64,000 nt of DNA from Malacoraja senta. Taxonomy: Eukaryota. The notes beneath the pieces were generated by a model that saw only the letters and a program-made list of their open reading frames with translations, did no database searches and was not told the DNA's origin. A program made the position numbers and the translations under genes. Positions 8,375 to 9,505 of the stretch are shown piece after piece; the stretch's first letter is position 1; each line of letters starts with the position of its first letter. Where the stretch lies: positions 7,070,001-7,134,000 of the forward strand of contig CM075990.1 of NCBI GenBank assembly GCA_038087875.1, written 5' to 3'.

Positions 8375-9505
8375 TCATCTCCATCACAGGAGACAGACTA
8401 TTGATCGATATCTACTACAAACCCACTGACTCCCATAGCTATCTGGACTACACTTCTCTCCACCCTGCTTCCTGTAAAGACTCTATCCCCTACTCCCAAT
8501 TCCTCCGACTACGCCACATCTGCACTCAGGATGAGGTTTTCCATACCAGGTCATTGGGAATGTCCTCATTCTTTAAGAAACGGGGGTTCCCCTCTTCCAT
8601 TATAGCTGAGGCTTTCACTAGGGTCTCCTCGATATCCCGCAGCTCTGCTCTTGCTCCCCCTCCCCCCATTTGTAACAAGGACAGAGTCCCCCTTGTCCTC
8701 ACCTTCCACCCCATCAGCCATTGCATACAGCATATAATCCTCCAACATTTTCGCCACCTCCAACGGGATCCCACTACTGGTCACATCTTCTCATCTCCAC
8801 CCCTATCTGCTTTTCGCAGAGACCATTCCCTCTGCAACTCCCTGGTCAACTCGTCCCTTCCCACCCAAACCACTTCCTCCCCAGGTACTTTCCCCTGCAA
8901 CCGCAGGAGATGCAACACCTGTCCCTATACCTCCCCCCTTGACTCCATCCAAGGACCCCAACAGTCTTTTCAGGTGATGCAGAGGTTCACTTGCACCTCC
9001 TCCAACCTCGTCTACTGTATCCGCTGTTCCAGGTGTCAACTCCTGTGCATCGGCGAGACCAAGCGCAGGCTCGGTAATCGTTTCACTGAACACCTCTGCT
9101 CAGTCTGCCTTAACTTACCTGATCTCCCGGTTGCTCAGCACTTTAACTCCCCCTCTGACCTTTCTGTCCTGGGTCTCCTCCATTGTCAGAGTGAGGCCCA
9201 GCGCAAATTGGAAACACAACACCTCATATTTCACTTCTGTAGCTTACACCCCAGCGGTATGAACATTGAATTCTCTAACATCAAATGCTCTTGCTTTCCC
9301 TCTCTCGCCATCCCCTCCCCCTTCCCAGTTCTCCCACCAGTCTTACTGTCTCCGACTACATTCTATCTCTGTCCCGCCCACTCCCCTGACATCAGTCTGA
9401 AGAAGGGTCTCGACCCGAAACGTCACCCATTCCTTCTCTCCAGAGATGCTGCTGTCCTCTGAGTTGCTCCAGCATTTTATGTCTACCTATGATTTTCCAG
9501 CCTGG
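8375..9505 (+). mobile_element. Penelope-like retroelement (probably Neptune-type), 5'-truncated: RT C-terminus, Cys-rich linker, GIY-YIG endonuclease and terminal repeat
   Basis: ORF 8359-9462: [33 protein letters not shown] (RT thumb), [41 protein letters not shown] (GIY-YIG, with YIG changed to CIG). Confidence 0.9.
9397..9424 (+). ncRNA. Minimal type I hammerhead ribozyme motif at the Penelope 3' terminal repeat
   Basis: CTGAAGA-A-GGGT(CTCG)ACCC-GAAA-C-GTC: both conserved core boxes, 4-bp stem II, palindromic ACGT helix III and a GUC triplet. Confidence 0.65.

Follow-up and report, generated by a model that had tools for sequence, protein, structure and literature searches.

Minimal hammerhead ribozymes in the terminal repeats (pLTRs) of Penelope-like elements (PLEs) have been known since 2014, when the metazoan consensus CUGANGAH–stem II–GAAAN–palindrome–NUH was reported (Cervera & De la Pena 2014, PMC4209133). 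The motif at 9397–9424 of the window (the whole 64-kb stretch of DNA analyzed) is a further member of this kind. It shares with the published minimal hammerheads the CUGANGA-H core, G10.1–C11.1, GAAA and the zero-loop palindromic helix III (C-G-U-C), along with the pyrimidine-rich 5' flank and a placement behind a truncated PLE, at its 3' end. Numerous scattered solo copies and opposite-strand pairs 100–700 bp apart were also reported there already. At the same time, stem II comprises 4 bp here vs. 7–8 bp in S. mansoni and 3–8 bp across the published alignment, whereas stem I is made of two pairs, one of them A-U or G-U, most published ones having 3–6 bp and the published 2-bp cases being two G-C pairs. 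A 2-bp helix I occurs in the motifs of D. virilis, Culex and Oikopleura, and a D. virilis construct with an extended helix III was cleaved weakly (PMC4209133); dimer cleavage of minimal hammerheads is attributed to Lunse et al. in a review (PMC6765202). A strong rival hairpin and the high local density of copies set the window family apart from the published minimal hammerheads. The published alignment, as far as it was available, is without cartilaginous fish, and no description of this Penelope hammerhead family was found in the literature on cartilaginous fishes (Repbase/Dfam, most subscription papers and preprint supplements lay outside this search).

Another close counterpart is PAc, the Poseidon PLE of the green anole (Frangieh et al. 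2024, PMC11167929), with a pLTR hammerhead likewise situated upstream of a tail between two starts of reverse transcription. Its protein cuts both strands of AT-rich DNA, and reverse transcription starts at two internal RNA sites bounding the tail. Both target strands are cut and extended on an uncleaved RNA template, a mode of insertion to which the copies in the window can be likened, and, as here, no RNA-seq ends at the cleavage site are documented in the available text. Still, PAc belongs to another clade and its ORF starts inside stem II, whereas the window element is of the Neptune type with no start codon in the motif; moreover, the activity of PAc was shown in vitro, whereas the window element is known from sequence alone.

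The Penelope pLTR of D. virilis (Schostak et al. 2008, PMC2377424) is similar in its 2-bp helix I. Its internal TATA-less Inr/DPE promoter can be likened to the TCAGT of the window family, and the intron end at the 5' side of its helix I resembles the pyrimidine tract with CAG found here. The order of parts differs, however: in D. virilis, 46 nt separate the start site from a 75-nt intron downstream of it, with the hammerhead after the latter, whereas the short copies in the window begin at the motif. Non-LTR retrozymes (PMC7229834; 10.64898/2026.07.22.740005) are also non-coding, hammerhead-bearing vertebrate repeats related to PLE pLTRs, with one chondrichthyan sampled, but they form head-to-tail arrays, typically bear canonical type I hammerheads and yield circular RNAs. 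The window units, unlike these, occur singly or head to head in pairs, and their motif is minimal and in most cases broken. Membership among the non-LTR retrozymes was therefore rejected on tandem organization, the only tandem being one 39-nt dimer with a broken first core. Regarding a tRNA-SINE identity, the available part of a paper on chondrichthyan SINEs makes no mention of Penelope.

The Motif and Its Parent Element

The locus around the motif comprises the following features, all on the forward strand:
8383–9285 (start approximate), +: decayed 5'-truncated Penelope-like ORF fragment with RT thumb/helical domain, linker and GIY-YIG
9286–9391, +: pyrimidine-rich tract forming the upstream portion of the pLTR; CAG follows at 9393–9395
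9392–9398, +: TCAGTCT, start of most short copies and a match to the initiator consensus (A+1 = 9394)
9397–9424, +: minimal hammerhead motif, CTGAAGA-A-GGGT-CTCG-ACCC-GAAA-C-G-T-C
9425–9436, +: 3' strand of stem I (2 bp), also an imperfect reverse complement of 9399–9408, giving the rival hairpin
9437–9490, +: short-repeat body up to the first preferred 3' end (consensus ca. 88–104)

The preliminary description had placed this motif in an abundant short repeat at the 3' end of a Penelope ORF copy, and both parts of the statement can be read directly at 9397–9424, ca. 110 nt past the end of the GIY-YIG-bearing ORF fragment, i.e., in a pLTR location. The motif is made up of the CUGAAGA core, an extra A, the 4-bp stem II with its tetraloop, GAAA, the palindromic ACGU helix III and GUC, with the cut predicted after 9424. 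Its assignment to the minimal type I hammerheads, with an extra base after A9 and a palindromic helix III, agrees with the published consensus: CUGANGA is followed by the extra base, stem II is closed by G10.1–C11.1, and GAAA and UH are in place. The palindrome at 15.2–16.2 leaves no or a minimal loop 3; most copies, like the reference, read ACGU there, the departures being mostly G>A at CpG. Downstream, the ca. 35-nt tail that follows the body in other copies is only partly present at the 9397-linked copy. Judged by its letters, the motif, which lies in a Penelope-like terminal repeat, is a true homolog of the minimal type I hammerheads, since its non-CpG core positions vary less than downstream ones (see below). 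The Rfam search of the 64-kb window, with E up to 5, gave no hammerhead match; its miRNA matches were inverted pairs of the short repeat and other hairpins. Exact degenerate motif patterns were found 0 times in metagenome contigs and 0 times in viral contigs, and among the matches listed for indexed sequencing runs there was no RNA run.

The ORF fragment carries a C-x-x-x-x-x-C-x-x-C linker and a GIY-YIG domain whose motif encloses two Cys and is followed by two His, a Neptune-type layout. The C-terminal GIY-YIG after RT, with CCHH (the Cys pair and His being read in the translation), is the arrangement of EN+ PLEs, and a CX2-5CxxC linker, present here as C-x5-C-x2-C before GIY-YIG, marks Neptune and Nematis elements (Craig 2021). 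The parent thus appears to be a Neptune-type PLE, its clade being placed by the linker alone. Atlas features of the fragment matched HTH_animal/GIY-YIG/RT clusters at 0.96–0.97; Pfam gave no match for this ORF, and the PDB sequence search with it returned none. Its sister fragment at 49766–50563, 72% identical, matched Pfam GIY-YIG at the cut-off. Altogether, three PLE ORF fragments are present in the window, each truncated upstream of the thumb region, with no RT core in the window; read depth at the 9397-linked locus begins at ca. 8341–8422.

Pyrimidine tracts similar to that at 9286–9391 precede four other long copies. By analogy with D. virilis, the tract with its CAG could be an intron end with a splice acceptor, although no GT..AG joint corresponding to splicing that rebuilds stem I was found among the 15 joints listed (611 further joints lay outside this listing). 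The candidate donor at the stop of the 49766 ORF would leave the four bases before the motif unaltered; the stop codon of this copy overlaps the donor-like CAG/GTAG. Within the minus-strand ORF fragment at 49600–50563, the pyrimidine tract is joined directly to the tail, with nothing of the hammerhead or body in between.

Abundance and Conservation of the Copies

The 24-letter pattern with up to 3 mismatches was matched 23 times in the window (0.01 expected; maximum of 1 in 100 shuffles). The profile search of the 64-kb window, with a profile built from 19 window copies, detected 55 copies or arms (24 on the plus and 31 on the minus strand), amounting to ca. 9% of the window or about one copy per 1.2 kb; three shuffled windows returned 0, 1 and 0 matches. 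There is no orientation bias (24 plus of 55, p = 0.42). Each position proposed earlier for a variant copy does hold a copy within a few bases, though that at 13931 has lost GAA from its core, and the loop variants CTCG, TTCG (with a U-G pair), CCCG and CTCA were all found. The earlier suggestion of a very high-copy non-autonomous retroelement family is supported as regards the copy number, but not as regards a separate non-autonomous family, the anatomy of the copies being like that of Penelope insertion products. If this density holds genome-wide, which is an extrapolation, the motif could be among the most abundant hammerhead-like motifs in a vertebrate.

Two further copies on the forward strand are of particular relevance here:
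28186–28317, +: two-core tandem (period 39 nt) in which the first core is broken at C3 and the other is intact
58352–58486, +: solo short copy of full length including the tail, with an intact core but a broken closing pair of stem I

Conservation was assessed in the 33 of the 55 matches that reach the core. All core letters are kept in 12 of these, core plus the 4-bp stem II in 6, and core, stem II and palindromic helix III in 4; every element including both stem I pairs is kept in 3 only, namely 9397, 28225 and the minus copy at 59649, the latter with G-U at 10.1–11.1. The intact sense cores previously noted at 9397, 28225 and 58357 all hold, but the last has C.A at the closing pair of stem I. 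Non-CpG core positions showed 18/322 mismatches (5.6%) vs. 238/1611 (14.8%) downstream, and free motif positions 25/158 (per-position test, p = 0.004), although the selection of the 33 copies for reaching the core and their shared ancestry inflate the contrast between core and flank. A core no more conserved than its flanks had been proposed as a reason to discard the motif; in this comparison, the core was the less variable, and the motif was not refuted.

CpG positions have decayed by 25%, with G12 broken in 12/33 copies. Subfamily variants occur at neighboring positions but not in the core, except for the GAA deletion. The latter is present in 5/33 copies (4799 minus, 13927 plus, 43681 minus, 47574 minus and 51292 minus), which represent different downstream subfamilies and, in one case, only one arm of a pair; such recurrent loss is probably due to slippage of the reverse transcriptase at GAAGAA near the 5' end. 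The tandem at 28186–28317 is flanked by a target-site duplication and lies in sense within an intron of a JNK-family gene, ca. 105 nt past the start of that intron. Joints that go back 36–38 nt and resemble this tandem recur in sequencing runs (12 contigs in X1). A-to-I editing is inseparable from copy variation in the sequencing reads. Two identical truncated minus-strand copies at 34335–34416 and 34636–34717, 301 nt apart, arose either through recent local duplication or as an artefact of assembly; the sequence is interrupted at 37250–37449 by a gap of 200 bases (N).

Folding and Expected Cleavage Activity

Stem I was suspected from the outset to be weak, at about 2 bp, and 2 bp were found, paired in 78% of cells and with a near-zero predicted probability. 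Stem II is paired in 87% of cells (25 copies), its changes being mostly one-sided and compatible. The earlier view that pairing is kept is thus borne out by the proportion of paired cells but not by comparison with shuffles, 264/500 of which reach the whole-structure value. The covariation check within the window copies revealed nothing beyond shuffles in stem II, stem I or the rival helix: in stem II, only 2 cells have a two-sided change, a number matched by 317/500 shuffles, the sample of 25 copies being small and dominated by neutral decay. RNAalifold on 21 longer copies gave 4 pairs only, with no two-sided change and no conserved structure in the body or tail.

In contrast with stem II, which has a pair probability of 0.001–0.07 in the three copies folded, the rival hairpin reaches 0.58–0.93 and is the predicted fold, because the bases past the cleavage site imperfectly complement the 5' half of the core. 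Across copies, the rival helix is paired at 87.3%, equal to stem II. Cleavage activity of the motif is therefore doubtful on the folding models, given the 2-bp stem I, the rival hairpin, the lack of covariation in stem II and the completeness of only 3/33 copies; the copies probably do not cut RNA unaided.

Read data bear on this to a limited extent. Among 16,300 poly(A) reads from run X22, ends pile up nowhere, the cleavage site included; this is a weak test, since such libraries lose cleavage fragments; furthermore, most reads break at 9452 on the reference copy, so starts at 9425 cannot be fairly displayed. Reads in the motif bin of the same run are strand-symmetric (5268 vs. 5440). Over the PLE ORF bins (X22 on 8300–9520), there is a first-mate-plus excess throughout, mostly 1.3–5 to 1. 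In most stranded libraries, such a lean means reads antisense to the ORF; the short-repeat reads show no lean.

Ends of the Short Copies and Inverted Pairs

In 35/55 matches, the alignment starts at consensus positions 1–7, shortly before the core; ca. 29 remain when five that extend into the pyrimidine tract upstream and one spurious extension are subtracted. Other starts fall inside the motif (13/55), near the cleavage site at 32–36 (2/55) or beyond (5/55). In all four sequencing runs, the best-supported 5' loose ends, among the top rows listed, are at 9391–9396, and those at 9394/9395 have a flank agreement of 0.31–0.35, indicating unrelated flanks. Since most 5' ends lie upstream of the core and only 2 near the cleavage site, the template RNA of most short copies was probably uncleaved.

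This template may have started at the initiator-like TCAGT. TCAGTC at 9392–9397 fits the Drosophila initiator and, with one mismatch in the 9397 copy, the human one; the downstream promoter match is partial, as CGANC fits +18–22, CGG at +27–29 does not, and the DPE agrees in 4/5 (the consensus sequences of the initiator and downstream elements were taken from review passages). The stretch 9392–9398 contains the 2-nt 5' strand of stem I and is also half of the TCAG-N-CTGA palindrome central to several inverted pairs. Stalling of the reverse transcriptase or fold-back at this palindrome could explain the clustered 5' ends equally well as an RNA start.

The 3' ends are bimodal: 17/55 lie at consensus 88–104 and 30/55 at 118 or more, the difference being the ca. 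35-nt tail. As many as 24/55 matches form 12 head-to-head pairs, most of them single insertions, a count omitting the complex cluster at 47495–47950 and the tail-to-tail neighbors 19058/19334. Two representative pairs, spanning both strands, are as follows:
3916–4141: head-to-head pair, arms 98% complementary, TCAG-T-CTGA junction, tail on the left arm only, duplication of ca. 14–17 bp
59556–59775: head-to-head pair, minus arm keeping the core (G-U at 10.1–11.1), tail on the plus arm only, duplication of 11–13 bp

Target-site duplication scores of at least 10 were obtained for 10/12 pairs vs. 4/930 control pairings, the duplications of pairs being 10–17 bp long. By reading of the sequences, a tail on one arm only was established in 11/12 pairs, two of which were corrected for an alignment running into the duplication, and the arm junctions fall at local palindromes within or just before the motif. 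Inverted 5'-truncated copies with a one-sided tail are hallmarks of PLE insertion (Craig 2021), and the 11 pairs correspond to this description, with a tail of 30–40 bp at one end only.

Near-perfect hairpins of 75–94 bp, 95–98% complementary, are located at 3953–4141, 23783–23935 and 37750–37900; those at ca. 23800 and ca. 37800 score vs. Rfam miRNA models, below the gathering threshold. Such inverted pairs put long perfect hairpins into host introns, and it is possible that the near-perfect ones are dsRNA substrates in host transcripts. Between 36858 and 37150, an inverted pair with ca. 80 nt of unrelated AT-rich spacer lies, as a whole, within one target-site duplication.

Origin of the Short Copies

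Taken as a whole, the motif is probably the minimal type I hammerhead of a Neptune-type PLE pLTR, and the dispersed copies the short insertion products of that element. Reverse transcription would be primed at the tail of the 5' pLTR copy within the element's own transcript and would cover only ca. 100–135 nt before reaching the 5' terminus of the RNA, situated at the initiator-like TCAGT or close to it. Inverted pairs, joined at local palindromes, would result when both cut strands serve as primers, and use of one or both strands could yield solos and pairs alike, with no need for a separate non-autonomous family or for cleavage. Within this account, the ribozyme would be silent as naked RNA, owing to the 2-bp stem I and the rival hairpin, and dispensable for these insertions; any cutting would take place as a dimer helped by the PLE protein, and genomic copies like 9397 would be inert passengers decaying mainly at CpG sites. 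The fixed ends of the copies agree with the mechanism described in vitro in 2024 and suggest that insertion needs no cleavage. Against parts of this account, a target-site duplication is clear in only 3/19 non-paired units, and the continued conservation of the core argues for a function in the parent element. The family adds scale and a readable record to what was known, offering many natural variants for testing the function of PLE hammerheads.

A further reading, compatible with the insertion-product account, is that the parent element possesses an active, conditional ribozyme whose off state is the rival hairpin. The PLE protein or tandem transcription would refold the RNA, so that two cores pair via ACGU and cut after GUC. 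The conservation of the core across subfamilies and the mostly one-sided, compatible changes in stem II are in line with this, as are the anole PLE hammerhead, which cuts only with protein (PMC11167929), the weak cleavage of minimal hammerhead dimers and trimers (PMC4209133) and the recurrence of 36–38-nt core duplications in sequencing runs. However, the constrained dimer fold is ca. 14 kcal/mol worse than the free one (−12.7 vs. −27.1) and the constrained tandem ca. 10 worse (−5.2 vs. −15.3), tertiary energy being excluded in both cases. The poly(A) reads lack a pile-up, an intact sense core persists within the JNK gene intron, and 8/9 Xenopus retrozyme dimers remained uncleaved in vitro (10.64898/2026.07.22.740005). 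On balance, a conditional ribozyme is a serious possibility but somewhat improbable.

Fold-back would offer another route to the inverted pairs: a single cDNA primed at the tail would double over at a local palindrome, either TCAG-N-CTGA or one in the stem II/GAAAC region, and be copied in reverse, in which case the 5' ends would cluster because of palindromes and not because of the RNA start. Three pairs are indeed centered on TCAG-N-CTGA (3916, 10075 and 13805) and one on GTTTCGG-C-CCGAAAC (37716), several junctions are asymmetric, and young pairs have both arms from the same subfamily. Still, the starting point is the same in solos, which have no inverted arm; the tailless arm ends close to where tailless solos end, matching a second start site of reverse transcription; and the pair with the unrelated spacer has ca. 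80 nt between its arms. Fold-back as the source of the pairs is accordingly rather doubtful.

Self-propagation of the ca. 135-nt unit as a non-autonomous, SINE- or retrozyme-like family appears unlikely. Such a unit would be transcribed solo from its own internal Pol II promoter, with the initiator at its 5' end and downstream elements overlapping the hammerhead, and would receive the PLE protein in trans. Its 5' end and length are fixed, several sequence subfamilies exist, and the Inr and CGANC matches are correctly spaced; there are 55 short matches vs. 3 ORF fragments in the window, and in DNA run X1 the bin 9407–9447 has ca. 20 times the depth of typical ORF bins (a summed word depth, not a copy number). 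Moreover, PLE-derived non-autonomous retrozymes have been described (10.64898/2026.07.22.740005). On the other side, the anole protein requires the first 172 nt of the ORF, with reverse transcription starting at +111 to +118 (PMC11167929), and the solos lack the RNA ca. 55–60 nt beyond the start sites which that protein needs. The CGANC match is broken in a young subfamily (the pair 3916–4141, with arms 98% alike), retrozyme-type tandem arrays are absent save for the single 39-nt dimer, and the strand symmetry of the motif reads is what read-through predicts.

Returning to the insertion-product account, its most far-reaching form is speculative, and we would not expect it to hold in full. The insertions of 100–135 nt, which the 5' pLTR would yield in enormous numbers in this lineage, would record the two starts of reverse transcription, the priming from both strands into one head-to-head insertion and a template RNA, uncleaved, whose 5' end coincides with an initiator abutting the hammerhead; the hammerhead would double as the downstream part of the promoter, held off by the rival hairpin until refolded by the PLE protein. 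If this is true, the purpose of PLE hammerheads becomes testable at genome scale. Finally, a chance likeness to the hammerhead, with the conservation due only to promoter or protein-binding DNA, is very improbable: the want of an Rfam match and of covariation and a hammerhead fold other than the predicted minimum would suit it, but the core letters, G10.1–C11.1, the extra base and ACGU all match the PLE consensus at the PLE location.

Other Features in the Window

Exons of a JNK-family kinase with GT/AG borders were recognized on the plus strand at 27960–28081, 30647–30776 and ca. 35904–36042, the best PDB matches being MAPK10 and MAPK8; hence, part of the window is intronic. These exons identify the host as a vertebrate. 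A second short-element family, represented at 44655–44962 and 48094–48348, has 36–48 bp terminal inverted repeats of similar sequence and is MITE-like. Another repeat, putatively a tRNA-derived SINE, occurs at 20862–21248 in a nested inverted arrangement with arms of 46 and 75 bp.
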